A stretch of DNA of 64,000 nucleotides from an uncultured Campylobacter sp. (GTDB taxonomy: Bacteria > Campylobacterota > Campylobacteria > Campylobacterales > Campylobacteraceae), in NCBI GenBank assembly GCA_963515585.1, contig CAUPXM010000004.1:7259-71258 (forward strand). Direction: 5' to 3'. Position numbers and translations under genes: made by a program. Below are positions 5,972 to 57,598 of this stretch, in pieces. How positions within the stretch are numbered: position 1 is the stretch's first letter; the number at the start of each line of letters is the position of its first letter. The notes beneath the pieces were generated by a model. It ran no database searches. It worked only from the letters and a program-made list of their open reading frames with translations, and was not told the DNA's origin.

Positions 5972-7321
5972 ATGAAAAAGGATTATATCTGCGTATTTGA
6001 TTGCGAGACGATCCCAGACGTAGCGGCGCTGGTGCGGGTGCTGGATGAGGATGCGATCGCGAGCTGCTTTGAGCCTTTCGATAAAAAAAGCTTCGCAAAG
6101 CTTCTTAACGCGCAGCTCTCGCAAAAGATCGGCGGCGAGAAACAAAACGCGTCTTTAAATTTTGCTGTAAATTCGGCGGAGCAGAATTCTAAAATTGAAA
6201 ATTCCGAGCAAAATTCCGCGCCGCAAAACTTTATGCAGCAAGACGTTACGCTTCAAAGCTTTGCGAGTGAAAATCCTGTTGAAAATCCTGCGCAGGGAAA
6301 TTTTACGAGCGAAAATTCCATGTCGCAAAATACGGCGCCCAAAAATTCCGCGTCGTTAAATTTAACCTACGACGATATCGCGCCTCAAGGCTCCGCGGCA
6401 CAGAGCGTCGCGGTAGAAAATTCCGCGCTCCGAAGCCCTGCGCCTCAGAATTCCGCGGCGGAAAGCTCTACGCTCCAAAACTCAAAGAGCGAAAATCTCG
6501 CTTCAAATTCCGCGCAAGATCTCGCGTCAAACGCGCTAAATTTTAAAATTTACGGCGAGCAATTGATCTTTAATGCGGATAAAAGCAAAATTTTAAACCA
6601 CAAATTGCTCTCGCTTAGGGCGATGGAGATTTTTAAAGAAAAAACCGGCAGCGAATTCCTGCCCGTCTGCTTCCATCGCGTCGTTAGCATTAGCGCCGTG
6701 ATAGCGGACGGATTCGGCAGATTTTTGCGCGTCTCGACGCTTGATGGTGAGAACGAGCGCGATAAAATCGCAAAATTCCTAGCCTTCATCGAGGATTTTA
6801 ATCCGCGGTTAGTGAGCTTCAACGGGCGCGGGTTCGATCTGCCGATGATTATGGCGCGCGCGATGTGCTATGATCTAAGCGCCGCGGCGTATTTTGAGAC
6901 GAACGATCGAGATAACAACAAGAGCAAATGGGAGAACTACCGCAGCCGCTACGACGGGCGGTTTCATCTGGATCTGCTTGATCACATCAGCGATTTTGGC
7001 GCCGTTCGCGGGCTCAAGCTCGATCATATCTGCGCTAGCGTGGGCCTTCCTGGCAAATACGACGTGCACGGCGATCAGGTTCTGCAGTTGTATTACGCAG
7101 GCGAGCAGGCCAAGATCGACGAGTACTGCAGATCCGACGTACTCAACACCTACTGGCTGTTTTTGAAATACGAGCTTTTGCGCGGCAAGATCACCAAGGA
7201 CGATTATTTGAATTATATCGCGGTGATGGGCGAATTTTTGCAAAAAGAGTGCGCGGGTATGAGCTACACGCCCGTTTTTTGCGACTTTATAGAAAGGGAG
7301 CTGGCGGCATATGCGAAGTGA
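5972..7321 (+). CDS. PolB-like 3'-5' exonuclease family protein carrying a large low-complexity insertion
   Basis: Exo I CVFDCETIPD, Exo II SFNGRGFDLPM and Exo III EYCRSDVLNTYWLF are all present. About 135 aa of QNS/ENS-type low complexity lies between Exo I and Exo II. AAAGGAG sits before ATG 5972. Confidence 0.8.
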   Translation: MKKDYICVFDCETIPDVAALVRVLDEDAIASCFEPFDKKSFAKLLNAQLSQKIGGEKQNASLNFAVNSAEQNSKIENSEQNSAPQNFMQQDVTLQSFASENPVENPAQGNFTSENSMSQNTAPKNSASLNLTYDDIAPQGSAAQSVAVENSALRSPAPQNSAAESSTLQNSKSENLASNSAQDLASNALNFKIYGEQLIFNADKSKILNHKLLSLRAMEIFKEKTGSEFLPVCFHRVVSISAVIADGFGRFLRVSTLDGENERDKIAKFLAFIEDFNPRLVSFNGRGFDLPMIMARAMCYDLSAAAYFETNDRDNNKSKWENYRSRYDGRFHLDLLDHISDFGAVRGLKLDHICASVGLPGKYDVHGDQVLQLYYAGEQAKIDEYCRSDVLNTYWLFLKYELLRGKITKDDYLNYIAVMGEFLQKECAGMSYTPVFCDFIERELAAYAK

Positions 7322-8165
7322 AATTTTTAAAATTTTAAAAGGCGCGGTTTTTGGCGCGGTGTTTTTGCTCTGCGGCGCGGTCGCGGATGAGGCTAAATTT
7401 AAACCGATGCTGCTTAAAGAATATGTCCCTGGCATGAATATCACCGGCTGGGTGATTAGCGAGAAGCTAGACGGCGTGCGCGCGATCTGGGACGGCAAAA
7501 ATCTGCGCTCCAGGCGCGGCAAGATCATAAACGCTCCCGAGGGCTGGAGCGCGGGCTTTCCGCCGTTTTTCGTCGACGGCGAGCTATACACGGCGCGCGG
7601 AGAGTTTGAGCAGCTTGTCTCGATAGTATCGGCAAGCGTTCCCGATGGGCGGTGGAACAGGGTGAAATTTTACGCGTTTGACCTGCCGAAGGAGCAGAAA
7701 AACCTAAGCGCGAAGATGGAAATTTTAAGAAATTTTATCGCCTCAAGCGGTGCGCAAAATTTACTCATCGTGCAGCAAACTCCGGTAAGCACGCATGCCG
7801 ACGTGCAGGCGTATTTTGATCGCGTTATCGCAGCAGGCGGCGAAGGCGTCGTGCTGCGCGATCCGAACGCGCTTTATGAAAGCGGCCGCAGCGATAAAAT
7901 TTTAAAATACAAAAAGACGCACGATAGCGATTGCAAGGTCGTAAAAATCAACCCGGGCTACGGCAAAAACGAGGGCAAGATGGGCTCGCTTAGCTGTGTA
8001 GATCTACGTAGCGGGGTGAAATTTAAAGTAGGCACGGGCTTTAGCGACGAAATGCGGGCAAATCCGCCTAAAGTAGGCACGATCATCACCTATCAATACC
8101 AAAACCTAACCCACGAGAAAAAGCCGCGCTTCCCCGTATTTTTGCGCGTGCGACCAGCGATTTAA
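7311..8165 (+). CDS. ligE: ATP-dependent DNA ligase, minimal periplasmic LigE type
   Basis: 284 aa. N-terminal signal peptide (GAVFGAVFLLCGAVA) and adenylation motif SEKLDGVR. Overlaps the exonuclease gene by 11 nt. Confidence 0.85.
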   Translation: MRSEIFKILKGAVFGAVFLLCGAVADEAKFKPMLLKEYVPGMNITGWVISEKLDGVRAIWDGKNLRSRRGKIINAPEGWSAGFPPFFVDGELYTARGEFEQLVSIVSASVPDGRWNRVKFYAFDLPKEQKNLSAKMEILRNFIASSGAQNLLIVQQTPVSTHADVQAYFDRVIAAGGEGVVLRDPNALYESGRSDKILKYKKTHDSDCKVVKINPGYGKNEGKMGSLSCVDLRSGVKFKVGTGFSDEMRANPPKVGTIITYQYQNLTHEKKPRFPVFLRVRPAI

Positions 8166-8217
8166 TCTAAGGGGCTATAATCGCATATTTTGATAAATTT
8201 GATCCGAAGGAGAATAG

Positions 8218-9207
8218 ATGAAAATTTTAATCACAGGCGGCGCGGGATACATCGGCAGCCACGTCGCAAAGGCGCTTTTAGAAGCGAACCGCCACGACGT
8301 CGTCATACTGGATAATCTTTGCAAAGGCTCGATGCGAGCGATCGAGGCGCTTCGCAAGATAGGCGAGTTTGAGTTCGTGCAGGAAAGCCTGGAAAACACC
8401 CCTGCAATCGAGAAGCTTTTTAAGCGCGAGAAGTTTGACGCGATCATTCACTTTGCGGCGTTTATCGAGGTTTTTGAAAGCACGCAAAATCCGCTAAAAT
8501 ACTATCTAAACAACACCGCCAACGCGATGAATTTAATCGCGCTTGCGAACAAATACGGCGTGAAAGACTTTATCTTTAGCTCCACTGCGGCGACCTACGG
8601 CGAGCCCGACATCTCGCAAGTAAGCGAAGAAACTCCGCAAAATCCGATCAATCCGTACGGCAGAAGCAAGCTGATGGTCGAGTGGGTGCTAAAAGACGCA
8701 GCCGCGGCAAATCCAAATTTTAAATATGGAATTTTGCGCTACTTCAACGTCGCAGGTGCGGCTAGCGACGGCACGATCGGGCAAAACTACCCGAACGCGA
8801 CGCATCTTATCAAGGTTGCAACTCAAACTATCGTCGGCAAGCGCGATAAGATGAGCATTTTCGGCGATGATTACGACACCAAGGACGGCACCTGCATCCG
8901 CGACTACATCCACGTAGAGGATCTCGCAAGCGCGCATCTGGCGGTGCTTGATTATCTGCAAAACGGTGAGAGCGCGGTCTTTAACGTAGGCTACGGCACG
9001 GGCTTTAGCGTAAAAGAAGTTGTCAATGAAGCTAAAAAAGTAAGCGGCGTGGATTTTAAAGTAGAAATCGCTCCGCGCAGAGCCGGCGATCCTGCCTGCC
9101 TCATCTCAAACGCGGATAAAATTCGCACCAAAACCTCTTGGCAGCCTGAGCACGAGAGCCTGGATGAGATCATCCTAAGCGCGCTTAATTGGGAAAAGAA
9201 GCTCTAG
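8218..9207 (+). CDS. galE: UDP-glucose/UDP-GlcNAc 4-epimerase (GalE/Gne)
   Basis: GGAGYIGSH Rossmann motif and YGRSK catalytic Y-x3-K. Sits at the head of the pgl locus, as in C. jejuni. Confidence 0.93.
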   Translation: MKILITGGAGYIGSHVAKALLEANRHDVVILDNLCKGSMRAIEALRKIGEFEFVQESLENTPAIEKLFKREKFDAIIHFAAFIEVFESTQNPLKYYLNNTANAMNLIALANKYGVKDFIFSSTAATYGEPDISQVSEETPQNPINPYGRSKLMVEWVLKDAAAANPNFKYGILRYFNVAGAASDGTIGQNYPNATHLIKVATQTIVGKRDKMSIFGDDYDTKDGTCIRDYIHVEDLASAHLAVLDYLQNGESAVFNVGYGTGFSVKEVVNEAKKVSGVDFKVEIAPRRAGDPACLISNADKIRTKTSWQPEHESLDEIILSALNWEKKL

Positions 9208-9288
9208 GTTCTAGCGTGAAAGTGCGATTTGAAATTTTAAAATTTTACTCCGCCGCGTTTAATAGCGGCGAGCAAAAGGAAGCCTTGT

Positions 9289-10827
9289 TTGCTTAAAATT
9301 CTAAACGCCCCCGAAGCCGCGCAGCGTAAGCTCGGCGTCGTGCTATCGTATGTAAATATCTTTGTTTCTACGATACTTACTTTGGTTTATACGCCGTTTT
9401 TTCTGCGGGCGCTGGGGCAGAGCGAGTTTGGGCTATATTCTTTATCAAGCAGCGTTATCGGCTATTTAGCGATTTTAGATTTGGGTTTCGGTAATGCTGT
9501 GACGGTCTATACCGCCAAATACGTCTCAAGCGGCGAAGTGGAGCGCATGCATAAGCTGCACGGAACGATCTTTAGCGTGTATTTAGTGATGAGCGCGGTG
9601 ATCGTGCTTGCAGGAGCTGCGCTGCTAGCCAATCTGCACGCGATTTTTGGCGCTAAGCTAAGCGCTAGTGAGATGGGCGAAATTCGCATTATGCTAATGC
9701 TACTAACTGCAAATTTAGCGATTAGCTTTCCTTTTAGCATCTATTCGTCGATCCTTACGGCGCATGAGAATTTCGTATTTATCAAGCTAATTGGGATCTT
9801 TCGCACGATCGCTCTGCCGCTAGCTGCGGTGCCTGCGCTACTTTTGGGATATAAGGCTATCGCGATCGTAATCATCGCTACGGCGGTAAATTTAATCTGC
9901 GTCGCGGCAGACTTTATCTACTGCAAGCGCAAAGTCTCGCCCATGATAAGCGTGCGAAATTTCGACACCCCCACGCTTAAGCAAATTTTTGGCTACTCGT
10001 TTTTTATATTTTTAGGCATCGTAGTCGATCAAGTAAACTGGAACGTCGATAATTTTATCTTAGGCGCGGTCGCAGGCGCTACGGCGGTTTCCACGTATGC
10101 CGTAGCAAGCACGATAAATGCCACTTTCGTCACGCTTTCGCTCACCATTAGCGGCGTAATGCTTCCTAAAATTGCCAAAATGGTCTCTGCCAACTCCGCC
10201 GATTCCGAGCTTAGCGCGGAATTTATCAAAATAGGCAGGCTGCAATTTTACGTGATATTTTTTATCGCGTCGCTCTTGGTGATTTTTGGGCGGGAGTTTA
10301 TCGTGCTCTGGGCTGGTGCAAATTATGAAATTTCATACGCAATCGCGCTTATTTTGGTGCTTCCAGTAAGCGTGCCGTTGATTCAAAATTTAGGCCTAGC
10401 CGTGCTTCAGGCAAAAAACAAAGTCAAATTTCGCTCAATCGCCGCGTTTTGCGTCACGCTCGTGAACATCGCTATTTCTATCCCGCTAGCTAAGGCTTAC
10501 GGTGGCGTGGGCGCTGCGTGCGGCACGGCTTTTGCGATCACCTTGCTAAATATCTGCGTGATGAATATCTACTATGCTCGTGTAATCGGACTTGACATCG
10601 CTAAATTTTGGCAAAATATCGGCGCGATGGTAGTAAAATTTGCTCCCGCAATAGCAGTAAGCCTAGCGATAAATTACGCATTAGGCTTGCATGGAGTGAG
10701 CTTTTTGCTAATTTGCGGCGGGCTTTATTCGGCTATGTTTGTGCTAAGCGCATATTTTTGGGCGATGAATGACTACGAACGCGCGATTTTTGGTGGCATT
10801 GCAGCTAAGATAAGGAGGCGGGCTTGA
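9289..10827 (+). CDS. wzx: MOP-superfamily (Wzx-like) oligosaccharide flippase
   Basis: 512 aa and hydrophobic throughout, with about 12-14 predicted TM segments. TTG start preceded by AAGGAAG. Occupies the slot that holds the ABC flippase pglK in C. jejuni. Confidence 0.75.
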   Translation: MLKILNAPEAAQRKLGVVLSYVNIFVSTILTLVYTPFFLRALGQSEFGLYSLSSSVIGYLAILDLGFGNAVTVYTAKYVSSGEVERMHKLHGTIFSVYLVMSAVIVLAGAALLANLHAIFGAKLSASEMGEIRIMLMLLTANLAISFPFSIYSSILTAHENFVFIKLIGIFRTIALPLAAVPALLLGYKAIAIVIIATAVNLICVAADFIYCKRKVSPMISVRNFDTPTLKQIFGYSFFIFLGIVVDQVNWNVDNFILGAVAGATAVSTYAVASTINATFVTLSLTISGVMLPKIAKMVSANSADSELSAEFIKIGRLQFYVIFFIASLLVIFGREFIVLWAGANYEISYAIALILVLPVSVPLIQNLGLAVLQAKNKVKFRSIAAFCVTLVNIAISIPLAKAYGGVGAACGTAFAITLLNICVMNIYYARVIGLDIAKFWQNIGAMVVKFAPAIAVSLAINYALGLHGVSFLLICGGLYSAMFVLSAYFWAMNDYERAIFGGIAAKIRRRA

Positions 10828-12446
10828 GCTTCAATGTAATTAGCGAAGTGGTTACGAAAGACCGCTGTATCGGCTGCGGCGTCTGCGCGAGCAGCTGCCC
10901 TTTTAGCGTGCTAAAAATGCGGCTTGGAGGCAATGGATTTTACGCGCCTGAGGAGGGCGAAGGGTGCCGCGACAAATGTGATATTTGTCTAAAAGTCTGC
11001 CCGTTTTACGAAAAAGACATGCTTGAAAATGAGCTAAATTCTAAATCATACGCAGAGCTGAAAGGCTTTAGCCCAGATTTTGGCAGGTTTTTAGCCACTT
11101 ACAAATTCTACAAAAAAGATGAAGCGCAGCGCCTAAGCAGTGCGAGCGGCGGCGCGGGAGATTATATTTTTCGCGAGCTTTTTGCGCGCGGGCTCATTGA
11201 TTACGCGATTTGCGCCGTGCCTGCGGACGAAGGGGATTTTATAGCCCAAAATTCCAAGCGTGATTTTTCTGCCTGCAATAATTTAGCGCAGCCACAGAAT
11301 TTGCAAAATTCCGCAACCGAAAATTTCGAGCAGAATTCCGCAATTCCGAATTTAACGCAGAATTTGGCGGACGATGATTCTATAAATTTTACGAGTGCGC
11401 AAAATTCCTTTTGCGAAAATTTTACGCAGAATTCCATGCAGAATTTTACAAATGAAAATTTCGCACAGAATTCTAAAGCTTCTTGTAAAAATTCCGTATC
11501 AGCACAGAATTTTGCCTGCGAGAATTCTAAAAACACGCGAAATTATGCGGGCGAAAATTCCGTGCCGCTATTTAAATTTAGCGTGATAAAAAATGCTGGT
11601 GAGCTTACTCGCGCTCGCTCGTCCGCTTACTATCCGCTCACGCTTGAAGCAGTGCTAAAGGAGATGTCGCGCCGTGAGGGTAGATACGCGATTAGCGCGC
11701 TGCCGTGTTTTGCCAAGGCCTTAAGGCTTGCTGCGAGTAAAAATCCGCGCCTTAAATCCCGCATAAGCTTTATTATTGGGCTGGTTTGCGGACAGGGCAA
11801 GGGTGCTGGTTTTACGCATAAGCTGGCAGATCTTGCGTTTAAAGAGCGTAAGCAGCTCGCAGCAGTTAATTACAGATATAAAATCGCGGGCAAAAGTGCG
11901 ATGAGCTTTGGCTTTAAATTCCGCGCTACAGACGGTAGCGAGGCGATAGACGATCGCAGTAGTAGCGCCTTTGCCTACTGGAGTTCGCGCGCTTTTACGC
12001 CGCTTGCGTGCAACGCCTGCACCGACGTTTTTGCCAAATGCGCCGACGTCGTACTGATGGATGCGTGGCTGCAAAGCGAAATGAGCGAGTGGCGCGGCAC
12101 ATCGCTCGTAATTACGCGCGCAGCTCAGATTGACGTGCTATTTTCGCAGCCTACGAAGCAGGCACGCGAGGCGATTTTTTGCGAGCGGATATCCGCAACG
12201 GAGGTGCAGCGCTCGCAGCAAAGCCAGGTAGAGTGCAAAAACGAAATTTTCTATGGCGCGAAAAACCCGCTTAAGCGTTACATCTTGCGCCAGAAGCTTC
12301 AGATCCAGCGATATAGCGCTACGCATTTTGATTGTGATGATTTCATCGCTGCTAGGCTTAAAAAAATTGCCGCTGCGAATAAAGTGCTAGCGCTTTTGAC
12401 GCTACCAAAGATCGCGGCATATAAAATTTATAGGAAGTTTGCATGA
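10824..12446 (+). CDS. 4Fe-4S protein of the coenzyme F420 hydrogenase/dehydrogenase beta-subunit-like family, with a low-complexity insertion
   Basis: Two Cys clusters (CIGCGVCASSCP, CDICLKVCP), SSASGG, ALPCFAKALR and GLVCGQGKG. This family is typically paired with pyruvyl transferases in glycan loci. About 109 aa of QNS/ENF repeats are inserted. Confidence 0.75.
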   Translation: MSFNVISEVVTKDRCIGCGVCASSCPFSVLKMRLGGNGFYAPEEGEGCRDKCDICLKVCPFYEKDMLENELNSKSYAELKGFSPDFGRFLATYKFYKKDEAQRLSSASGGAGDYIFRELFARGLIDYAICAVPADEGDFIAQNSKRDFSACNNLAQPQNLQNSATENFEQNSAIPNLTQNLADDDSINFTSAQNSFCENFTQNSMQNFTNENFAQNSKASCKNSVSAQNFACENSKNTRNYAGENSVPLFKFSVIKNAGELTRARSSAYYPLTLEAVLKEMSRREGRYAISALPCFAKALRLAASKNPRLKSRISFIIGLVCGQGKGAGFTHKLADLAFKERKQLAAVNYRYKIAGKSAMSFGFKFRATDGSEAIDDRSSSAFAYWSSRAFTPLACNACTDVFAKCADVVLMDAWLQSEMSEWRGTSLVITRAAQIDVLFSQPTKQAREAIFCERISATEVQRSQQSQVECKNEIFYGAKNPLKRYILRQKLQIQRYSATHFDCDDFIAARLKKIAAANKVLALLTLPKIAAYKIYRKFA

Positions 12447-13504
12447 AGATCGGGATTTTTACCCTGCCGCTAGTAAATAATTACGGCGGAATTTTACAAG
12501 CTTATGCGCTAAGCCGCGTGCTAGTGGAGCTTGGGCATGAGCCACGTCTCATAAACTTGCGCCTGCAAAGAAGTAAACTATCGATTGCGTATATTAAATT
12601 TTTAGTGGCGCGCACGCTAAAAAAGGAGCTTTGCGGCGCGAAATTTAATCCCTCTTACGAGCGCGATACTAGTGAGTTTGTAGCGGAAAATATCCCTTTA
12701 ACCGTGCCTGTTTGCACGCCCGCGGATTTAAAAGCGCTGTGCGAGAAAGAACGCTTTGAAGCGGTGATTTTAGGAAGCGATCAAGTTTTTCGTCCTAGCT
12801 ATTTTGCGGATTTTGCAGATTGCTTTAGCCTTGGATTTTTGCCGCCTAACTGCACGCGGATCGCCTATGCTGCAAGCTTCGGCGGAGATAGGCTCTGTGG
12901 GCTTAAAAATCCCGCAGATTTAAAAGCTCACGCTGCAAATTTGGCTAAATTTAAAGCTATTTCGGTGCGTGAGTGCGATGGTGTAGAGCTTGCACGCGAA
13001 TGCTTTGGTGTAGATGCGCACTGGGTACTGGATCCTACGCTTTTAGCTAACAAAGAGATTTACGATAAATTTTTAAGCCATGCGCCAAAGCGCAAGGGCT
13101 TTGCCTATATCCTAGATCCATCGCCTCGCTCAGAAGCGGCGATAGAGCTACTAAAAAAGCAAAGCGGCCTAGAGATAGATGAGGTGAACGACCGCGGCAA
13201 CCGTATCGGCATAAAAGCATGGTTAAGCGCTATTGCGGGCGCGGAGTTTGTGCTAACCGACTCATTTCACGGCTGCGTATTTTCCATAATCTTTAATAAG
13301 CCGTTTTTTGCGCTCGTTAACGCTAGTCGCGGCGCGTCGCGCTTTAGCTCGCTTTTGGGCTCGTTCGGGCTTGAAGATAGAGCTTTGCAAGATCCCAAAG
13401 ACGCGCGCTTGGACGCGACTATCGATTGGAATGGCGTAAATGAGGCGTTGCGCCGTAAAAGAGAGGACTCGATGAAATTTTTAAAAACAAGTTTAGGCTC
13501 ATAA
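12443..13504 (+). CDS. polysaccharide pyruvyl transferase family protein
   Basis: 353 aa. N-terminus MKIGIFTLPLVNNYGGILQAYAL and the GSDQVF motif are typical of the family. ATGA-type overlap with the upstream Fe-S gene. Confidence 0.75.
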   Translation: MKIGIFTLPLVNNYGGILQAYALSRVLVELGHEPRLINLRLQRSKLSIAYIKFLVARTLKKELCGAKFNPSYERDTSEFVAENIPLTVPVCTPADLKALCEKERFEAVILGSDQVFRPSYFADFADCFSLGFLPPNCTRIAYAASFGGDRLCGLKNPADLKAHAANLAKFKAISVRECDGVELARECFGVDAHWVLDPTLLANKEIYDKFLSHAPKRKGFAYILDPSPRSEAAIELLKKQSGLEIDEVNDRGNRIGIKAWLSAIAGAEFVLTDSFHGCVFSIIFNKPFFALVNASRGASRFSSLLGSFGLEDRALQDPKDARLDATIDWNGVNEALRRKREDSMKFLKTSLGS

Positions 13505-13505
13505 A

Positions 13506-16890: not shown

Positions 16891-17140
16891 CGGTCGCTTA
16901 TCGATGCCCTAGCGGCGCGCAGGGATTAAATTTAAACTTCGGTGTGCTAAGATAGCGTCTTGCGCCCGAGCAAAACGGCGCGTTTAAATTTACAAGCCGC
17001 ATCGCGCGATGAAATTTAGCCGCTTGGGGCAGCGCAAAATGCGCTGAATTTAAAACAGATTGCGCGGCGTATGCTCGCATAAAAAGGCGCGAGCAAAGCT
17101 TAAATTTAGGGCGCGGCAGCGATATTTAAAAGGTAAAGGG

Positions 17141-18259: not shown

Positions 18260-18261
18260 GC

Positions 18262-22807: not shown

Positions 22808-24606
<1,799 letters not shown>

Positions 24607-43489: not shown

Positions 43490-43499
43490 AGGATAAAAT

Positions 43500-44102: not shown

Positions 44103-44115
44103 TTAAGGAAAAATC

Positions 44116-44376: not shown

Positions 44377-44404
44377 ATTTTAGCGGCGTAGAGCCGCTAA
44401 AATT
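44376..44404 (+). terminator. hairpin terminator after rpsR
   Basis: 12-bp stem AATTTTAGCGGC / GCCGCTAAAATT with loop GTAGA, starting at the rpsR stop codon. Confidence 0.55.
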
Positions 44405-45579: not shown

Positions 45580-45618
45580 TTCAATCTCTTAGGTTTTAAA
45601 TTTATCGCTGCCTGATCG

Positions 45619-47672: not shown

Positions 47673-47673
47673 C

Positions 47674-48429: not shown

Positions 48430-48492
48430 TAAATTTCTCTCTCATTATGATTTTTGCGTATCGCTATTTTGCGCAGAATTTTGCATAGAATT

Positions 48493-49164: not shown

Positions 49165-49221
49165 AAAATTTCCTAACGTAAAAAGTGGCGTATTGTAACT
49201 AAAATTTCATTAATCTTAAAT

Positions 49222-50295
49222 TTAGCGCCCGCTTTGGCTACTTTGCGTGATAAAAAGCGCGATCTCGTCGGCGAGCAAAAAGTTGGGATTATAAAATTTA
49301 CCCTCGCTGAATTTCAGCTTTTTGGCCTGCACGAGTAGCTGCGCGCTGCTTAGCTCCGCAGCGTCTAAAATTTGCGCTTCAAGTCCCAAAATACAGCGCA
49401 GCCCGAGAAATATGCGCTCAAGCTTTTTGTCCTGCGCGCTTAGAGCTTCGCGCTGTTTTTGCAGCGGGTCTGCGATGTAATCTCGCAAATTTTTAGGCGA
49501 GCTAAGGCGCACCTGCCCGCTAGTTCCGACCGCAAACGCTCCGAATCCGGCGTAATCCTCGCCGCGCCAGTAAGCCAGATTGTGCTTACAGCGCAGTCCG
49601 CGCGCGGCAAAATTTGAAATTTCATACTGACTAAAGCCGCTATCCGCCGCAAGAGCAAAGAGAAGTTTAGCTAGAGCCGCGCTTTCTTTTTTAAAGCTTT
49701 CGCGCCCAAAAAAGGGCGTGTTTTCCTCAAGGCTTAGCGCATAGGCGCTTAGATGCGGCACTTCACAGCGCGCAAACTCGGCCATTTCAAATTTTAAATT
49801 CCTTTTATCGTCAAATTTGCTCGCATAGATTAGGTCTAAGTTTATATTATCAAAGCCCGCCGCTTTAGCATTTTGCACCGCTAGGAAAATCTGCGCCGCA
49901 CTGTGCGCGCGACCGAGGAATTTTAGCTTGGCATCGTTGAAGCTCTGCGCGCCGAAGCTGATGCGATTTACGCCGAGCCCCTGCATCGCGCTAAGCCAAG
50001 CGGGGCTAGCGGAGTTTGGGTTGGCTTCCGAGCTGATTTCGGCTTTGGCGGCGAAATGCGGCGCGAGCAGCGCAAAAATTTCATTATAAAGCCCCGCATC
50101 CACGGCGCTTGGCGTGCCTCCGCCGATGAAAAGCGTCGAAATTTGCGCATGTGGATTTTTCGCCAAAAAGTCGCGCACTTCAAACTCTAGCGCGCGAAAG
50201 TAGCTTTTTGCGAGGCTAAATTTGTCGCTGAAGGAGCCAAAGGCACAATACGGACATTTGGAGGTGCAAAACGGCACGTGGATATAGATGTGCAA
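49222..50295 (-). CDS. hemW: radical SAM heme chaperone HemW (HemN-like, oxygen-independent coproporphyrinogen oxidase family)
   Basis: HVPFCTSKCPYCAF radical-SAM cluster motif. 357 aa, which is HemW size. Confidence 0.85.
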   Translation of the reverse strand: MHIYIHVPFCTSKCPYCAFGSFSDKFSLAKSYFRALEFEVRDFLAKNPHAQISTLFIGGGTPSAVDAGLYNEIFALLAPHFAAKAEISSEANPNSASPAWLSAMQGLGVNRISFGAQSFNDAKLKFLGRAHSAAQIFLAVQNAKAAGFDNINLDLIYASKFDDKRNLKFEMAEFARCEVPHLSAYALSLEENTPFFGRESFKKESAALAKLLFALAADSGFSQYEISNFAARGLRCKHNLAYWRGEDYAGFGAFAVGTSGQVRLSSPKNLRDYIADPLQKQREALSAQDKKLERIFLGLRCILGLEAQILDAAELSSAQLLVQAKKLKFSEGKFYNPNFLLADEIALFITQSSQSGR

Positions 50296-50431
50296 GGTCG
50301 GTCCTATGGGCTAAATTTATGTCACAAAATTTAGCGAATTAATTTGAAAATTTATATAAATTTTAAGCCTCTTAACGCAAATTTTAATATTTTTAGGTAG
50401 AATTTTGAGAAATTTTTTGTGAGAAAACGAG

Positions 50432-50902
50432 ATGGAAAAAGAGAAAAATTACAGACCAAATGTCGCTGCAATCGTGCTTTCGCCATCGTATCCGTTTAAC
50501 TGCGAAATTTTGATTGCGCAACGAAGCGACATCAAAGGCGCTTGGCAGTTTCCTCAAGGCGGTATTGACGACGGTGAGACGCCTACGATGGCTATCCGTA
50601 GAGAGCTAGGCGAGGAGATCGGAACAAGCAAAGTCGATATCATCGCTGAGTGCCCGAAGTGGCTTAGCTACGACTTTCCCGATGGGGTAGCTCAAAAGAT
50701 GCGCCCATACGACGGGCAAATTCAAAGATATTTTTTAGTGCGATTGCGAAATTTGCGTGATCTGAACATCAATACCAAGCTTCCTGAATTCGACGCATTT
50801 AAATTCGTAGGCGCAAATGAGGTTTTAAGGCACGTAAATCACTTCAAAAAGCCGATTTACGCGACGGTTTTAAAATATTTTAAAGAGGAGGGCTACATTT
50901 AA
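50432..50902 (+). CDS. rppH: RNA pyrophosphohydrolase (Nudix)
   Basis: Nudix box GGIDDGETPTMAIRRELGEEIG. 156 aa. Confidence 0.88.
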   Translation: MEKEKNYRPNVAAIVLSPSYPFNCEILIAQRSDIKGAWQFPQGGIDDGETPTMAIRRELGEEIGTSKVDIIAECPKWLSYDFPDGVAQKMRPYDGQIQRYFLVRLRNLRDLNINTKLPEFDAFKFVGANEVLRHVNHFKKPIYATVLKYFKEEGYI

Positions 50903-52107
50903 TGCTAATCGTTCAAAAATACGGCGGCACGAGCGTCGGCACGCTAGAGCGGATCGAGTCGGTCGCACAGCGCGTGATCAAAACCAAAAACGAAGGGCAT
51001 AACGTCGTAGTAATCGTCTCTGCGATGAGCGGCGTTACCAATCAGCTCATCGAGCAGGCGGAATTTTTTACTAAAACTCCCGAAGGCAGGGAGATGGACG
51101 TACTGCTAAGCTCGGGCGAGCGCGTCACGAGCGCGCTTTTGGCTATCGCGCTAAATGCCAAGGGCTATGCTGCGATCGCATTTAGCGGGCGAGGCGCGGG
51201 CATCGTGACGGACGAGTTTCATACCAAAGCTCGCATAGTCTCGATCGATCCTAAAAGCATGCAAGAGGCATTAAAGCAGGGCAAAATCGTCGTCGTCGCG
51301 GGCTTTCAAGGCATCAGCACCGCGGGCGAAGTAACTACGCTCGGACGAGGCGGAAGCGATCTTAGCGCAGTCGCCGTCGCAGGAGCGCTGAATGCCGATC
51401 TGTGCGAAATTTACACCGATGTAGACGGCGTATATACGACCGATCCGCGCATCGAGCCGAAAGCTAAGAAGCTTGATCGCATCAGCTACGACGAGATGCT
51501 TGAGCTTGCGAGCTTGGGGGCGAAGGTTTTGCAAAATCGAAGCGTCGAGCTTGCGAAGAAATTAAACGTAAATTTGGTGACGCGAAGCAGTTTTAACGAT
51601 CATAAAGGAACACTCATAACAGGAGAAGAAAAGATGGAAGATGCAGTAATTAGCGGCATTGCACTGGATAAAAATCAAGCAAGAATTACGATTAGAAACG
51701 TAGAGGACCGCCCCGGCGTCGCGGCTGAAATTTTCTCCGCGCTTGCGGGCAAGGAGATCAACGTCGATATGATCGTGCAAAATATCGGACGAAACGGCGA
51801 GACGAATTTAGGCTTTACTGTGCCGCAAAACGAGCTGGAAACGGCCTATAGGGTAATGAAAGAGGTAAATCCAAATCCGAATTCCATCATCGAATCGGAT
51901 GCCGATATCGTAAAGGTTTCTTTGGTGGGCGTTGGTATGAAAAGCCACAGCGGCATAGCCAGCAAGGCGTTTAAGACGCTTGCGGATGAAGGGATAAATA
52001 TCCAGATGATTTCCACGAGCGAGATTAAAATTTCGATGATCGTAGAGGCTAAATACGGCGAGCTTGCCGTGCGCGCACTGCATAAAGCCTACGATTTGGA
52101 TAAATAA
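50902..52107 (+). CDS. lysC: aspartate kinase
   Basis: VQKYGGTSVG, the amino-acid kinase domain and two C-terminal ACT domains. Confidence 0.95.
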   Translation: MLIVQKYGGTSVGTLERIESVAQRVIKTKNEGHNVVVIVSAMSGVTNQLIEQAEFFTKTPEGREMDVLLSSGERVTSALLAIALNAKGYAAIAFSGRGAGIVTDEFHTKARIVSIDPKSMQEALKQGKIVVVAGFQGISTAGEVTTLGRGGSDLSAVAVAGALNADLCEIYTDVDGVYTTDPRIEPKAKKLDRISYDEMLELASLGAKVLQNRSVELAKKLNVNLVTRSSFNDHKGTLITGEEKMEDAVISGIALDKNQARITIRNVEDRPGVAAEIFSALAGKEINVDMIVQNIGRNGETNLGFTVPQNELETAYRVMKEVNPNPNSIIESDADIVKVSLVGVGMKSHSGIASKAFKTLADEGINIQMISTSEIKISMIVEAKYGELAVRALHKAYDLDK

Positions 52108-52640
52108 TGCAGGATCTGCACACTTGGAGCGTTACGGCGATGCGCTCCGAGCCCGGACTTGAGTGGCTCGAGGATCGCAAGGAGGACTGGACGCCGCTTT
52201 TAGCATCAAAGCTAAAATTCCTCCACGACGGCTTTGCTTTCATCGTCATCTGCGACGATGAGCGAAGCTGGTTTAGCGAATACATCATCAAAAAGATCAA
52301 CTCCTCTACCAACTCCCGCCCGCTGCTGCCGTTTTTTTCGCTGCGCTCGCTTTATCGCGGCGGTGTAAATAGCCTCGAGGACGCGCTGCTGCTAAACGAT
52401 ATGCTAAGCCTCGCGTTTGCCAACGGCTTTATATATTTTTACATCGGCAACGGCAACCATCCGCTAGCCAAGATCGCCAAAAGCCACGAGGACAGCTATC
52501 TGTGGCTCATCGACGAGAGGCTGCAAAACAGCTTTTACATGAGCGAGAGCGATCCGAGCCTGGATCTCAAACTAATCCAGCTTTTTAAAATTTTAGACAA
52601 AAGCATCGACGCCGTGCTTTTTGACGAAGTGGTGCTTTGA
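52107..52640 (+). CDS. hobA: DnaA-binding initiation factor HobA
   Basis: 177 aa. lysC-hobA-holB-folP synteny matches H. pylori HP1229-HP1232. C-terminus DLKLIQLFKILDKSIDAVLFDEVVL parallels the HobA DYKLLQLFKLFENALFSVLYNKVTL (from memory). Confidence 0.75.
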   Translation: MQDLHTWSVTAMRSEPGLEWLEDRKEDWTPLLASKLKFLHDGFAFIVICDDERSWFSEYIIKKINSSTNSRPLLPFFSLRSLYRGGVNSLEDALLLNDMLSLAFANGFIYFYIGNGNHPLAKIAKSHEDSYLWLIDERLQNSFYMSESDPSLDLKLIQLFKILDKSIDAVLFDEVVL

Positions 52641-53260
52641 AAATCATAAATCAGATCGTTTTAACGAACGATTATGAGGGCTTTAAAGATAAAATTTTAG
52701 CCGAAATTCCGCGCAAAAATTTAAGGTTTTTCGAAAGCACTGAACTTAAGATCGACGAGGCGCGAAAGATCATCGACGAAGCCTACGTCGCCGAGCGCGA
52801 GGATAAGATCATCGTCATCGCCGCTACGAAATTCGGCGAGGAGGCGCAAAACGCCCTGCTTAAAATTTTAGAGGAGCCGCCTAAAAATACGGTATTTTTC
52901 CTGATCACCCCCTTCATCAACGCCCTGCTGCCTACCATCCGCTCGCGCCTGATCGTGCAAAATCTCTGCGTGCGGAAGCCAAGATACCGCACCGGGTTAA
53001 ATTTAACCAGGCTAAGCCTAAAGGAAGCGGTGGAGTTTATCGACGCGCAGATCGCGCTGGAGCGCAAGGGCGAGCTGGACAAAACGGCACTAAAAGCGCT
53101 CATCGGCGAGATCGCGCTAGAGTGCTTCGAAGCGGGCGTCAGGCTAAGCGGCGATGAGCTGCAGCGGATTGACCGCTTGAGTTATCTTGCCGAGCATAAC
53201 GCCAAAGCCCACGCCGTGCTTACTCCGCTGCTTTTGATGATCGAGGAGAAAAAAAGATGA
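52637..53260 (+). CDS. holB: DNA polymerase III delta' subunit
   Basis: NALLKILEEPPKNTVFFLIT clamp-loader motif. 207 aa. Confidence 0.85.
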   Translation: MKIINQIVLTNDYEGFKDKILAEIPRKNLRFFESTELKIDEARKIIDEAYVAEREDKIIVIAATKFGEEAQNALLKILEEPPKNTVFFLITPFINALLPTIRSRLIVQNLCVRKPRYRTGLNLTRLSLKEAVEFIDAQIALERKGELDKTALKALIGEIALECFEAGVRLSGDELQRIDRLSYLAEHNAKAHAVLTPLLLMIEEKKR

Positions 53261-54393
53261 AAATTTATAAAATTTCAAACGATGCCGACTTTGCGCTGAT
53301 TTGCGAGCGCATCGGCGTGCGAAATGCGGGAAGGGCGATAATGCAGAAAAAATCGCGCCTAAACTTTTTCTATCTAAAAGACCTGCGAGCGCCCGCGGCG
53401 AATATTTTAAAGCAAGATGCCCTTAGCATCGGTGCCGAGCTTGCATGTAACGAAGGGGTGATCCTGGGGCGCGACGATACGGACGCGGTTTTGATCGCAA
53501 ATGACCGTCAGATCGAGGCTTTGGCGCAAAAGGAAGCGCTGCAGGATTTTGGGCTAAAAGAGCTTGCGAAATTTCTAAGCGAGAAATTTGCTAAGCCGCA
53601 AAGCTGCGAAATAATGGGCGTAGTAAACATCAACTCCGATAGCTTCAACCCCGCAAGCCGTGCGGCAAGCTTAAAAGAGGCGATCTGCAAGATCGAAAAG
53701 ATGATTGAGCAGGGCGCCGCTATCATCGACATCGGCGGCGTAAGCTCGCGCCCGGGCAGCCAGTACTGCGGCAGGGATGAGGAGTTTGCGCGCATAAAGG
53801 ACGTGCTGAGCGAAATTTACCGCCTGCGTCTGCACGAAAGGGCTAAATTTAGCCTCGATAGCTTTGATGAGTATTGTTTGGAATTTGCGCTAGATCGGGG
53901 CTTTAGCATCATTAACGACATCAGCGCAAACCTCGCTCTTGCCCCGCTTGCGCTTCGCTACGACGCCGCTTACGTGCTGATGCACATGCAAGGAAATCCG
54001 CAAAATATGCAGCTTGCGCCCAAATACGACGATCTGATGGGCGAAATCGATGAGTTTTTTGCGCAGAATTTGCAGCAGCTGCAAAGCGCGGGGCTTAAAA
54101 AGATCATCCTTGACCTGGGCATCGGCTTTGGCAAGACCGCCGAGCAAAATTTGGTGCTGATTAAAAATTTGCAGCATTTCTTGCACTTCGGCTGTCCGCT
54201 GCTTGTAGGCGCGAGCAGAAAGAGCGTTATCGATTTTTACAGCCCCTCTGCGGTCGAGGATAGGCTAGCAGGCTCGCTGTACCTGCACCAGGTTGCCGCT
54301 TTAAACGGTGCTGCGATCATCCGCACGCACGACGTTTTTCCGCACGTTCAAATGCTGCGGCTAATGCGCGCGATGGATCGGATTCTGCTATAG
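53257..54393 (+). CDS. folP: dihydropteroate synthase
   Basis: GVVNINSDSF and IDIGGVSSRPG pterin-binding motifs. N-terminal extension as in epsilonproteobacterial FolP. Confidence 0.9.
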   Translation: MKIYKISNDADFALICERIGVRNAGRAIMQKKSRLNFFYLKDLRAPAANILKQDALSIGAELACNEGVILGRDDTDAVLIANDRQIEALAQKEALQDFGLKELAKFLSEKFAKPQSCEIMGVVNINSDSFNPASRAASLKEAICKIEKMIEQGAAIIDIGGVSSRPGSQYCGRDEEFARIKDVLSEIYRLRLHERAKFSLDSFDEYCLEFALDRGFSIINDISANLALAPLALRYDAAYVLMHMQGNPQNMQLAPKYDDLMGEIDEFFAQNLQQLQSAGLKKIILDLGIGFGKTAEQNLVLIKNLQHFLHFGCPLLVGASRKSVIDFYSPSAVEDRLAGSLYLHQVAALNGAAIIRTHDVFPHVQMLRLMRAMDRILL

Positions 54394-54915
54394 TAAAATT
54401 TCAAAAAACTTATCGGAATTCTGTGGAATTTTCTTGAAATTTCATGGCTTGGCAAGATTTTGATAAAACCCGCTTTTTATAGAATTTTAAAATTTGTCCG
54501 AGTCAAATCTTTATAATTTTTATAAATTCTACCAAAGAGCGTTTTGCAAAATTTCATTAGAAATTCTTTCGTGCTTGGTTTTTTTCTTGGAATTTATTGC
54601 GTGTCCGCTTCTAAAATTTTATCAAATTATGCGTTGGTGCTTAAATCTTAACAAATCTCGCGCTGAAGATTATTGTGGCCGATAAAAATTCTACGTAGCG
54701 AGCCTATGTATGCGAACAGGTACAGCGCGTGAAATTTGCAAGCGGTGTGTATATTTTATAAAAAACGCCCACGCTGATCTACATTGCAAGCGAATCACGT
54801 GCATAAACAAAATCCTAAATCGCGCCACTATAATTTGCACCGCAAGCTTGCAATTTGATCAAATTTAGCGCGTACCAGCGGAACGACAAAACCGAACGAA
54901 AAGCGTGCGGTGCGA

Positions 54916-55007
54916 CAAATTTTAAATTTATTTTACGCGGTGACGTAGAGTTTTAAAATTTATTTTCTGCGATGACACAAAATTTCAAATTTATCTGCCG
55001 CAAAAAC
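54916..55007. repeat. three imperfect tandem units of about 31 nt
   Basis: CAAATTTTAAATTTATTTTACGCGGTGAC / GTAGAGTTTTAAAATTTATTTTCTGCGATGAC / ACAAAATTTCAAATTTATCTGCCGCAAAAAC. Confidence 0.55.
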
Positions 55008-55061
55008 AGAGGCCGCTACCGCTTAAGTCGCAAATTTTAGTAGCGGTAAAAACCAAAGTCG

Positions 55062-56120
55062 CTACCGCTTAAAGTCATGAATTTCGATATTTGCGTCATA
55101 TTTTTTGCAAAGCTCGTTTACTTTTTCTTTTAGCCTTTCCTCGTCATAGCAGATGAGATCGATGTATGCGTGCTTCTGCCCGGTTGCGCCGCCGATTATC
55201 TCCAAAAACGAGCTGCAGCTATCCAGCTCTTCGTCCTCGATCTTGTTTCGCAGATCAAAGCCCGCCTGCACGTCGCCGCCGTTATTAATGCTAAGAAAGC
55301 AAAATTTGATGCCGAGCTCGAAGGCTTCGTTGTAGATGTCGCGCTCGCCGTTTAGATATTGATTTACGATATTGGTCAGGCAGGTGGTGCCCACGATCAC
55401 GTCCTCGCGCACCTCGCTTCCGCGCGGCTCCATCTCGTAGCTGAAAAAATTCTTTAGAGGTTCGCGTGCGGCTTTTTCGCCGAATTTTTCATCGACCAGA
55501 TCGGCAAATTCGCTTAGCGGTACGCCGTTTTCTTCGGGCTCGGCTAGCACCTCAAGCTCGCCTAGCGTATTTATGATCGCCGTTTCGCCGATCATATTGT
55601 CAAGCAGGATAAAGCTAAGGTTATAAGCCTTGCCCTCGTCCTGCGCGAGCAGAGTGGCTAAATTTACATTGTAAATTTTGATATCCACGTCGCTTTCGTT
55701 AAACTGCGCGTAGATCATCGACTCCTCGGCGTTTACGTGCGTATCGTACATCTCGATCCCGCCGATACCTCGCGGTGCGCGCGGCTTTCCGAGCGTGCAG
55801 AGCATTTTGGACTCGAGCTGCCTAGGCATAGCGTTTTTGATGAAGCTTAGCCAAAATAATCGGTGCCTCATACCCTCCGGAGTTAGCACCAGATCGAGCC
55901 GCTCGCCCGCGAGCCCCGTCATAAAATAGGGCTCGGCAAGGCAGATGCGAAGCTTCTCGTCGGTCTTTTGCATCGCCTTTTCAAACTCTTCCGCCGCCAG
56001 ATCGGCCTTGATCTCATCTATCGCGCCGCTAAATTCCGCCCAAAATTTATCTACTCTGCCGGCAAAAGTGCTTGGAATTTGCGCCTTTTCAGCTTTTTTG
56101 CCCAAACCGAATAGCCCCAT
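55062..56120 (-). CDS. hypothetical protein (352 aa)
   Basis: AGGAG lies 5 nt before ATG 56120 (MGLFGLGKK...). Long ORF of ordinary composition. No family recognised. Confidence 0.7.
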   Translation of the reverse strand: MGLFGLGKKAEKAQIPSTFAGRVDKFWAEFSGAIDEIKADLAAEEFEKAMQKTDEKLRICLAEPYFMTGLAGERLDLVLTPEGMRHRLFWLSFIKNAMPRQLESKMLCTLGKPRAPRGIGGIEMYDTHVNAEESMIYAQFNESDVDIKIYNVNLATLLAQDEGKAYNLSFILLDNMIGETAIINTLGELEVLAEPEENGVPLSEFADLVDEKFGEKAAREPLKNFFSYEMEPRGSEVREDVIVGTTCLTNIVNQYLNGERDIYNEAFELGIKFCFLSINNGGDVQAGFDLRNKIEDEELDSCSSFLEIIGGATGQKHAYIDLICYDEERLKEKVNELCKKYDANIEIHDFKR

Positions 56121-56203
56121 AATCTCTCCTTTAATTAAATTTAAACGCAATTATAGCTTAATTTTTTGCGCAGACTCGGGGCGCAAATTTTAAAAGCCCG
56201 CCC

Positions 56204-57598
56204 TCACGTACACTGAAAGCAACCGCCCAAAACCTCGCATTTCTCGCAGATCTGCACATATATGACCCCCTCGCCCTGCACCAACTCGCCGAATGGGATC
56301 TGCGCTAGATGCTTCATCGTCCCGCCGCAGCTAGGGCAGGCTAGATACTCGGCGTCCTGCACCCACTGCGGATAGCCTCCCACGGTCGTATCAAGCTCGC
56401 CAAAGCAGCCGTAAAATGGCGAAACCTCGCCGCCTAGCTTAAATTTCATATCGCACAGTCGCGCCATGTCCTCTTGCGAAAAATAACTCTCCGTAAAACC
56501 TTCGCCTTTATAGCTTAGCTCCAGCTCGCCGTCTGCGCCTCTCTTGCAAAAGTAAACGACCGAACCGATACAGGTCGGGCAACAGCGAAAGATTGCGTCG
56601 TGCTTTAAATTTAGAAATGCAAGCCGCGGCTCATCGGCCTTAAGACGGAGCATATCGAGCATCTCGCAGCCGCAAAACTCGCACTTTTGCCCCGTAGGCC
56701 TGCCGATACGTACGGGCTCGTCCGCGTTTTGGTTTGCGCCTTCGCAGCGGGCATCCTTTGCATTTTTACTTAAATTTAAACCGCTGCTAGCGTCTTTTTG
56801 CGCGTCTGATTTGAAATTCGCGCGCTCGTTCCGCAAGCTCGCGTCTTCGTCCATGCTCGTGCGAGTACTCTGCGCGCCCGCGTGTAAATTTGAAGTTTTG
56901 CTCGCGTCTTTTTGCGCGTTTCGTTCGGAATTTGCGCCGCTCACGCCGCCTTTGAAATTTAAAATTTCGCTCGCGCTTTCATCTCCTCGCCCGCGCTTGC
57001 GCTCGCCGTTTTTCTCCGCGCTATCTTTCACGCGCACCGCGGCGAGACACTTATCAAAAACGAGCGATTTGCGCTCGCCCGTCTCGTCAAAGCTCCAGCC
57101 GCCGATTTTTGCGTAAAACTCGGTACCCACGTAGAGCTTTTGGCGCCACGGCCTCGGGTTTTTATACAGCTCGTAAAATAGCTCCGCCGTTTTCTCGTCG
57201 CCCTGCCATGCAAGCGAGCACAGAAGGTGATTTAGCGCGTTTTTAGAGTTGTCTTGTAGCGAGTCTAGTTTTGCTATGAGTGCGTCTCTTACGTCATTAG
57301 GCGCGCCGAAGTAGAGCTCGGGCGGATAGTAGATCTGCTTCGCCGCGGCGGCTCGCGCGATCCTTGGATCATGTATGTCCAGCAGGCTAAAAAGCGCCCA
57401 AAAATCGTTACAAATCTCATCCCATCTTTCGATCTCGTCTATGCGGCCCGCGATTTTTAGGATCATCGCTTCTACTTCGTCCGTGCTTAGGTTTAAAATT
57501 TCATCTCGCCTCTGCCTTTGGCTGCATGAGTGGCAGATGCCGTCGAAATAAATCGTGTTTTCGCCGCATTTTGGGCATAGATGGGCTTTGCTTTGCAT
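56204..57598 (-). CDS. zinc-ribbon protein with a DUF1963/YwqG-like C-terminal domain and a low-complexity insertion
   Basis: N-terminal CPKCG...CHSC and internal CEFCGC...CCPTC. The C-terminal GGYPQWVQDAEYLACPSCGGTMKHLAQIPF pattern is typical of YwqG-family proteins. Insertion at about 56717-57028. Confidence 0.7.
   Translation of the reverse strand: MQSKAHLCPKCGENTIYFDGICHSCSQRQRRDEILNLSTDEVEAMILKIAGRIDEIERWDEICNDFWALFSLLDIHDPRIARAAAAKQIYYPPELYFGAPNDVRDALIAKLDSLQDNSKNALNHLLCSLAWQGDEKTAELFYELYKNPRPWRQKLYVGTEFYAKIGGWSFDETGERKSLVFDKCLAAVRVKDSAEKNGERKRGRGDESASEILNFKGGVSGANSERNAQKDASKTSNLHAGAQSTRTSMDEDASLRNERANFKSDAQKDASSGLNLSKNAKDARCEGANQNADEPVRIGRPTGQKCEFCGCEMLDMLRLKADEPRLAFLNLKHDAIFRCCPTCIGSVVYFCKRGADGELELSYKGEGFTESYFSQEDMARLCDMKFKLGGEVSPFYGCFGELDTTVGGYPQWVQDAEYLACPSCGGTMKHLAQIPFGELVQGEGVIYVQICEKCEVLGGCFQCT

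Follow-up and report, generated by a model that had tools for sequence, protein, structure and literature searches.

Analysis of a 64-kb window (positions 1..64000, the whole stretch of DNA studied here) from an uncultured oral Campylobacter revealed eight low-complexity tracts that lie in frame within seven otherwise conserved genes and that all carry one DNA hexamer, RAATTY (R, purine; Y, pyrimidine). These tracts are probably slippage-grown spacers, predicted to be disordered, in which RAATTY accumulates and is retained as a methylation and uptake tag common to the genus. The material consisted of the window, which has a GC content of approximately 47%, and of 20-kb loci around pglB. The window was assigned to the C. 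gracilis complex because the conserved core of its PglB protein shows 93-99% identity to 55 loci of Campylobacter gracilis or "uncultured Campylobacter" and only 50-51% identity to C. concisus. Loci L037 and L039 represent sister lineages, whose homologues are approximately 50% identical to the window proteins. An initial annotation of this DNA had placed eight in-frame tracts within open reading frames (ORFs), and each of them was recovered at its coordinates:

6140..6545, plus strand: tract in a PolB-like 3'-5' exonuclease (ORF 5969-7321); 13 RAATTY sites, all in phase 2
11238..11564, plus strand: tract in an FrhB/FdhB-like Fe-S protein (ORF 10824-12446); 18 RAATTY sites (55 per kb), all in phase 2
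14963..15073, plus strand: tract 1 of a GT2 glycosyltransferase (ORF 14585-15850); 3 RAATTY sites, in phase 2
15458..15670, plus strand: tract 2 of the same GT2 glycosyltransferase (ORF 14585-15850); 4 RAATTY sites, in phase 2
18262..18882, plus strand: N-terminal extension of PglB (ORF 18262-21009); 22 RAATTY sites, 20 in phase 2
26739..26885, plus strand: loop insert of approximately 50 aa in HisH (ORF 26409-27152); 5 RAATTY sites, 4 in phase 0
48496..48792, minus strand: low-complexity C-terminal tail of TatB (ORF 48493-49164); 9 RAATTY sites, all in phase 2
56717..57028, minus strand: inter-domain linker of a Cys-rich zinc-ribbon (ZnR) protein (ORF 56204-57598); 6 RAATTY sites

Together, the tracts contain 80 RAATTY sites in 2,434 nt (32.9 per kb), compared to 7.0 per kb in ordinary coding DNA, a set hand-picked from the ORF list, and 19.5 per kb in the intergenic class, which holds a few small unannotated genes. 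The Poisson probabilities of this excess are 2e-28 relative to coding DNA and 1e-5 relative to intergenic DNA. The RAATTY context accounts for 90% of all AATT in the tracts, and the observed/expected ratio of 24.7, calculated from the local base composition, bears out the earlier proposal that the tracts have a motif in common at the DNA level. The tracts contain the word RAATTCCGC 15 times, in each case on the coding strand, versus 13 occurrences on both strands of the other 61.6 kb. The commonest distances from one RAATTY to the next are 12, 15 and 18 nt and the units are degenerate, which departs from the unit size of 10-12 bp given initially. The remark that the tracts have the texture of the intergenic regions was half right: both are rich in RAATTY, but tract sites are mostly AAATTC whereas 76% of the intergenic sites are AAATTT.

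The predominance of a hydrophilic reading frame was verified, as the reading xxR-AAT-TYx applies to 73 of the 80 sites, and so was the exception of HisH, in which four of five sites are read AAA/GAA-TTT. Asn-Ser pairs in the tracts are encoded by AAT-TCY in 45 of 53 cases (85%) and AGC is never used. Only about 8% would be expected because of the codon usage of the other genes in the window, in which serine is encoded by AGC (53%) and TCY (15%) and 52% of asparagine codons are AAT. Codons that precede the motif in the tracts are likewise moved toward A-ending forms. The entity shared by the tracts thus appears to be the DNA hexamer and not a peptide, with the peptide being set by the frame. 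The additions can be described, as proposed initially, as lineage-specific and in frame, and as built from a DNA word consisting of RAATTY and a GC-rich spacer. The statement that the tracts are free of stop codons in several frames proved largely incorrect; in most of them only the annotated frame is open throughout, and the remaining five usually contain stops. Three of the four antisense or alternate-frame ORFs listed in its support are present among the ORFs of at least 90 aa, and 11395..11586 is too short for that list. A role of the tracts as acceptors of bacterial N-glycosylation was considered and rejected, since D/E-X-N-X-S/T sequons are absent from all eight tracts and most host proteins are cytoplasmic.

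Enrichment of RAATTY extends over the entire window, which contains 632 sites, approximately 8-fold more than expected. AAATTT alone occurs 407 times (64% of the sites), 18.5-fold over the expectation from base composition. The observed/expected ratios of the four RAATTY hexamers range from 1.4 to 18.5, versus 0.1 to 1.5 (most below 0.8) for the twelve other NAATTN hexamers; AAATTC and GAATTT reach 6.0 and 4.4, compared to 0.5 and 0.6 for AAATTG and CAATTT. RAATTY contexts comprise 632 of the 787 AATT in the window. AATT outside of this context is depleted in the window and also in the C. concisus locus L057, which suggests that near-motifs are converted into motifs or that non-methylatable AATT is avoided. 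In ordinary coding DNA, 348 sites were counted versus 145 after synonymous-codon shuffling (2.4-fold, z = 22), and sites are present in all three phases. AATATT and ATATAT were not enriched over the synonymous shuffle in the same DNA. The density is approximately 9 per kb in loci of the C. gracilis complex (GC 0.49, observed/expected approximately 8.5) and likewise approximately 9 per kb in C. concisus (GC 0.40, observed/expected approximately 4.5). The tracts are therefore the extreme end of a genome-wide RAATTY property and not the separate family of micro-repeat elements that had been envisaged; the motif is over-represented across the window and in C. concisus. Outside of the tracts, the distances between all pairs of RAATTY sites show weak peaks near 21, 31-32, 41-42 and 52 nt, approximately one helical repeat apart. 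A 32-nt tandem repeat with 2.5 copies (AAATTTTAAATTTATTTTACGCGATGACACA), each with a paired AAATTT, is located at 54917-54994 within the RAATTY-dense intergenic region 54394-55061. No DNA methylase was detected among the 37 window proteins that were scanned with Pfam, which left approximately 18 ORFs unscanned.

Comparison of related genomes was used to obtain a position-by-position footprint of the motif. Outside of the motif, nucleotide diversity in the tracts is 0.078, 0.059 and 0.10 at codon positions 1, 2 and 3, compared to 0.021, 0.013 and 0.105 in the flanks. The four AATT positions have diversities of 0.010, 0.003, 0.005 and 0.015, the R and Y positions of 0.072 and 0.056, and the neighbouring bases of 0.05-0.16. 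The AATT cores are consequently about 6-10 times more conserved than the bases next to them, and they are also more conserved than other A/T runs in the tracts, which served as control (0.008 vs 0.026, p = 0.016). Expressed as a rate of differences, the core deviates in 1.06% of comparisons versus 6.8% for nearby bases. Changes at the R and Y positions are transitions in 92% of cases and thereby preserve the motif, which is kept in 95.4% of 2,107 comparisons. Over the whole PglB gene, 94.5% of the sites of the window are kept versus 72.6% expected from the overall identity, and in the PglB core four of 11 sites are shared by position even with C. concisus. Protein-level drift in the tracts is close to neutral, with the AATT cores as the exception. 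One of the roles considered initially, that of the tracts as carriers of RAATTY sites, agrees with this selective retention of the AATT cores. A test of synonymous AAT to AAC changes as proof of selection on the motif was dropped because AAT codons outside of the motif are equally invariant, and the footprint was used instead.

The host proteins were compared with their orthologues to define the status of each tract. Pfam confirmed six hosts (PolB_exo2, FrhB/FdhB Fe-S, GT2, STT3/PglB, GATase for HisH and TatA_B_E). The ZnR protein matched no Pfam family, even at E-values up to 1 on separate domains, and the DUF1963 label attached to it initially is without Pfam support. This protein carries the public name "cytochrome C"; no Pfam cytochrome domain was matched and the name probably rests on the CxxC motifs. 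The HisH tract could be placed on a known structure. T. maritima HisH (1GPW_B) aligns with query residues 2-108 (chain residues 3-113) and 159-244 (chain residues 114-193), so that approximately 50 unmatched query residues are inserted between chain residues 113 and 114; the insert is absent in C. concisus. For PglB, the alignment with the C. lari structure (3RCE) begins only at query residue 223 and the C. concisus protein begins at query residue 216, and the N-terminal extension of approximately 205-220 aa lies ahead of the first transmembrane helix. The PglB extensions of the two sister loci L037 and L039 are similar in length but unrelated in sequence, and AAATTT is read there in phase 0, as Lys-Phe. 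In the exonuclease, the tract forms the low-complexity centre of an insertion of approximately 180 aa that is specific to the lineage and separates the ExoI DxE motif (D11, E13) from the remaining fold. These approximately 180 residues are missing from outgroup homologues of 254-280 aa; these outgroups were taken from a search of 50% representatives, and the 120 matches listed for the closer search are all variants from the C. gracilis complex. Two exonuclease homologues with approximately 50% identity, P0122 and P0136, lack the internal insert and have Asn/Ser/Lys-rich low-complexity C-terminal tails, e.g. ENSNLGENSAQN; similar tracts therefore arise at other positions in other lineages.

The Fe-S tract sits between the N-terminal and C-terminal FrhB domains, both recognized by Pfam, and a sister-lineage homologue has at the same place a tract that is about 60 aa shorter and unrelated in sequence. 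GT2 tract 1 follows immediately after the GT2 catalytic domain, and its position is occupied in the sister lineage by a different sequence that is more than 60 aa longer. GT2 tract 2 is shorter in L011, L037 and L039. The GT2 allele of L011 (L011:5721-6920) follows the window type over its N-terminal two-thirds, while the C-terminal third, to which the shorter tract 2 belongs, follows that of L037/L039; the allele thus looks like a mosaic formed by recombination between lineages. Relatives of the ZnR protein have flanks that are 87-95% identical and total lengths of 378-488 aa; the alleles of 378-381 aa are without nearly the entire tract. TatB was compared with the PDB sequences (171-193 aa), which align confidently over the N-terminal part only. 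Judged by these alignments, the tracts of the exonuclease, Fe-S protein, GT2 enzyme, PglB, HisH and ZnR protein are lineage-specific insertions, while that of TatB is only a variable C-terminal tail. The orthologue and structure alignments also agree with the initial view that such segments are tolerated in loops, linkers and termini.

Expansion and contraction of the tracts, likewise proposed initially, is evident from in-frame length polymorphism among relatives. The nucleotide comparisons included 37-46 distinct sequences per gene, most of them from metagenome-assembled genomes (MAGs), and every length difference was a multiple of 3. Many tract indels are bounded by direct repeats of 8-20 nt that contain RAATTY. 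HisH falls into five length classes (663-771 nt) among 40 genomes and the Fe-S tract has a 27-nt in-frame indel polymorphism. An 18-nt indel in GT2 tract 1 is bounded by a 12-nt AAATTCTAAAGA repeat, and GT2 tract 2 has a 12-nt tandem duplication GCAAAATTCCGA and a 15-nt indel. In the PglB extension, in-frame indels of 33, 36 and 75 nt are bounded by 8-20 nt repeats, with a 20-nt repeat at the 33-nt indel. For the exonuclease and the ZnR protein, 120 protein variants each were compared, and both gaps and amino acid diversity are concentrated in the tracts; the exonuclease ranges from 441 to 486 aa among the 120 close variants listed, with the gaps again in the tract, and the ZnR variant P0320 has a tandem duplication of approximately 35 aa. 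Across the tracts, the length classes are graded in steps of 3-108 nt, and only the ZnR tract comes near to presence or absence, with many intermediates. Degenerate families of direct repeats (15-53 nt, 60-100% identity) are present in seven of the eight tracts, HisH having none, and the start-to-start spacing within a tract is a multiple of 3 for every family. Examples are 37-nt degenerate internal repeats in the Fe-S tract and a 27-nt tandem repeat in the TatB tail. Regular tandem arrays were not found in the tracts by Tandem Repeats Finder, which returned only low-score matches of 2-3 copies because the repeat copies are degenerate. Two exonuclease variants from metagenome assemblies, P0126 (168 aa) and P0134 (116 aa), are truncated products. 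Within the tract, P0126 switches from the normal frame to an alternative one that is rich in Arg, Ile, Pro and Lys, and P0134 terminates there; the two represent either genuine frameshift alleles or misassembly at the repeats.

The tracts are predicted to be intrinsically disordered. In an AlphaFold2 model of the exonuclease, residues 1-20 and 210-450 have predicted local distance difference test (pLDDT) values of 84-97, compared to values below 50 for residues 26-196 and approximately 30 for the tract, and residues 72-200 are modelled without secondary structure. The alignment used for this model included the outgroups and holds almost no information for the tract.

Several properties of RAATTY are known from other campylobacters. 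Its methylation was described as common across Campylobacter species (PMC13436318). As cited in two reports, C. jejuni imports only DNA that was methylated by CtsM at RA(m6A)TTY (PMC10046745; bioRxiv 10.1101/2024.09.10.611283), and the latter gives a frequency of about one RAATTY every 60 bp in C. jejuni. A preference of competent cells for motif-bearing, methylated DNA is known from this species only. In general, uptake sequences are found preferentially at poorly conserved protein positions (Findlay & Redfield 2009, PMC2817400). The C. gracilis genome announcement does not mention repeats of the type described here and reported no contingency genes (PMC4574385). Searches of the open-access literature yielded papers on methylomes and transformation and none on over-representation of RAATTY in higher-GC Campylobacter or on motif-rich coding tracts.

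In the explanation that we favour, the tracts would be translated disordered spacers that occupy loops, termini and the linkers between domains in proteins that are otherwise conserved. They would grow and shrink in frame as short direct repeats undergo replication slippage or recombine unequally. A pressure that acts genome-wide on the DNA would fill this weakly constrained coding sequence with RAATTY. This pressure could stem either from selection for the tag or from uptake-biased recombination that acts as a molecular drive, as considered for the uptake signal sequences (USS) of Pasteurellaceae and the DNA uptake sequences (DUS) of Neisseriaceae. Duplication of motif-bearing units would then lift the density further. 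Selection at the protein level would act as a filter against stops and would mostly admit the hydrophilic xxR-AAT-TCY (x-Asn-Ser), with AAA-TTT (Lys-Phe) in some tracts or lineages. As this filtering favours the hydrophilic frame, AAATTC (Asn-Ser) would be preferred over AAATTT (Asn-Phe/Leu) in phase 2. By analogy with C. jejuni, we infer that RAATTY may be methylated and used for DNA uptake in the C. gracilis complex and that this may cause its enrichment. A more far-reaching version is put forward tentatively and is open to considerable doubt. In it, RAATTY is a methylation-dependent uptake tag throughout Campylobacter, and in the higher-GC C. gracilis complex uptake-biased molecular drive on the tag is powerful enough to create and maintain new translated segments, with disordered loops and termini of housekeeping proteins as tag reservoirs; protein-coding sequence would then be generated directly by a DNA-uptake signal.

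Several observations weigh against the favoured explanation. The diversity analysis comprised four tracts in 37-46 genomes that are mostly MAGs. A/T runs outside of the motif likewise vary less than the average (0.026) and AAT codons outside of the motif almost never change to AAC, with seven of 20 such codons being located in the near-motif contexts TAATTY or AAATTA; mutation that depends on sequence context could account for part of the core conservation. RAATTY is denser in the tracts (33 per kb) than in intergenic DNA (19.5 per kb), so that passive accumulation is insufficient and duplication had to be invoked. Finally, the weak periodicity of approximately 10.5 bp in RAATTY spacing outside of the tracts, although obtained from a small sample, also fits a structural role of the A3T3 type. 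This last point belongs to an alternative in which the cause of the enrichment is physical or regulatory and unrelated to uptake (A-tract curvature, binding of a nucleoid protein or a Dam-like orphan methylase) and the tracts merely inherit the bias. Besides the periodicity, such a cause would account for the predominance of AAATTT (A3T3), for the 2.3-fold excess of TTTAAA over the synonymous shuffle and for the equal density in C. gracilis and C. concisus despite their unlike GC contents. Curvature does not, however, predict the sharp R/Y specificity, for which reason A-tract curvature was downgraded as the sole cause, and the conservation footprint corresponds exactly to the methylase consensus with AATT fixed and R and Y free to vary by transition. 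A physical or regulatory origin is on this evidence unlikely, and a regulatory role that depends on methylation overlaps with the explanation favoured here. It is still less likely that selection at the protein level for Asn/Ser-rich disordered linkers or interaction modules produced the tracts and that RAATTY is incidental to the encoding of Asn-Ser. The use of the hydrophilic frame in nearly all tracts, the fact that more than 40 genomes keep them open and in frame, and the predicted disorder would all be expected from linker selection. The codon choice for Asn-Ser and the avoidance of AGC would not, nor would the near-neutral drift of the amino acids next to conserved AATT cores, which include the synonymous third position of Asn. 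The same PglB extension is moreover Lys-Phe-rich in a sister lineage, and the tracts offer no N-glycosylation sequons.

The resemblance to Rickettsia palindromic elements (RPEs) that was noted initially did not withstand comparison. RPEs are discrete elements of approximately 100-150 bp with a recognizable consensus and palindromic potential. Insertion of a small RPE-like mobile element into genes would explain in-frame tracts in unrelated conserved genes, short words that they have in common, such as RAATTCCGC, and the near absence of the ZnR tract from some close relatives. In an all-versus-all blastn comparison of the eight tracts, the best match extended over 29 bp at 93% and the others over 13-23 bp, mostly 13; inverted pairs were limited to 0-1 per tract and weak (14-18 nt, 78-93% complementary). 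As no stretch longer than 29 bp is shared and palindromes are lacking, the tracts are not RPE-like. Neither terminal repeats nor target duplications were seen in the tracts, length varies in many small in-frame steps instead of by presence or absence of whole units, and sister homologues with approximately 50% identity hold unrelated tracts of other lengths at the same positions. A mobile element is for these reasons highly improbable, and an artefact of assembly or annotation, or open DNA that is not translated, is even harder to credit. The truncated exonuclease variants P0126 and P0134 would fit an artefact, and the start of the PglB extension was deduced only from the open frame and an upstream AGGA. 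The same tracts are nevertheless present in 37-46 independent assemblies with all indels being multiples of 3, and in most tracts the coding frame alone is free of stops. Those of HisH, the exonuclease, the Fe-S protein, the GT2 enzyme and the ZnR protein must be translated because conserved domains lie downstream.

The tracts combine features of two known kinds of sequence, low-complexity inserts made by slippage and the accumulation of uptake or methylation motifs at weakly constrained coding positions. Like USS and DUS, RAATTY is a short motif that is over-represented genome-wide and also inside genes, where it alters peptide frequencies, and it is placed at weakly conserved positions in tolerable frames, being 8-fold enriched here and densest in the unconstrained tracts. 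In contrast to USS and DUS, it has only 6 bp, is degenerate and palindromic, and the C. jejuni tag acts via methylation and not by sequence alone. Scattered single copies are typical of USS and DUS, whereas RAATTY reaches 33 per kb in dedicated low-complexity segments in this organism, in which it may serve as an uptake tag. The consensus is identical to that of the C. jejuni CtsM system, and the footprint observed here, with AATT fixed and transitions at R and Y, matches this recognition sequence. The work on that system deals with uptake biology in a species of 30% GC, in which the motif is frequent anyway, and describes no motif-rich coding inserts. Hydrophilic, lineage-specific and length-polymorphic inserts in the loops of housekeeping proteins, with degenerate short repeats and fast evolution, are also known as the Asn-rich regions of Plasmodium falciparum (PMC3140889). 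These are associated with an extreme AT bias and homopolymeric AAT runs, while the genome studied here has 47% GC and its tracts alternate GC-rich spacers with one conserved hexamer and employ codons unlike those of the other genes in the window. The tracts share with RPEs the property of adding in-frame segments to conserved genes without destroying them; they differ in having neither a consensus nor palindromes and in varying by small steps and not as units.

Low-complexity coding sequence in this genome is not all of the RAATTY type. A Gln/Glu/Ala-rich segment at 39130-39462 (ORF 38782-40068, no Pfam family) has only 3-4 RAATTY sites in its N-terminal portion and none in the Gln/Glu-rich part 39238-39462, and the Gly/Asn-rich tail of the single-stranded DNA-binding protein SSB (43827-44048) has few. 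Further genes of the window that were identified by Pfam include gapA-pgk-tpiA, fabI, the PolB-like exonuclease with its adjoining ATP-dependent ligase, a protein-glycosylation (pgl) and polysaccharide cluster that contains PglB, hisH-hisA, prmA, ftsH, RNase R and others. The 3' end of the exonuclease gene overlaps the start of the ATP-dependent DNA ligase gene (7311-8165) by 11 nt, which suggests that the two genes (span 5969-8165) are a co-transcribed pair. An AT-rich island at 33809-38700 (GC approximately 0.30 vs 0.48 elsewhere) is situated directly downstream of tRNA-Leu(gag) (33809-33893). It contains four minus-strand ORFs, one of which has RTX calcium-binding repeats while the other three are without a Pfam match. 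The RAATTY observed/expected ratio is 3.9 in this island versus 8.7 elsewhere in the window, and the low value fits a recent acquisition.

Approximately one in eight genes in the window has a hypervariable insert that is conserved only at the core bases of the tag. In Campylobacter MAGs, the tracts will interfere with the alignment of orthologues, with the calling of frameshifts and with statistics on gene length, and their length polymorphism is a possible marker for strain typing. They also reveal loops of PglB, HisH and other enzymes that tolerate large insertions. As the surrounding bases drift neutrally, the force on the motif is directly measurable, which would make the tracts a natural experiment on whether uptake sequences are kept by selection or by uptake-biased recombination and on what they cost or benefit the proteome. 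If the explanation favoured here is correct, a six-base methylation and uptake tag would leave a measurable footprint on proteins.

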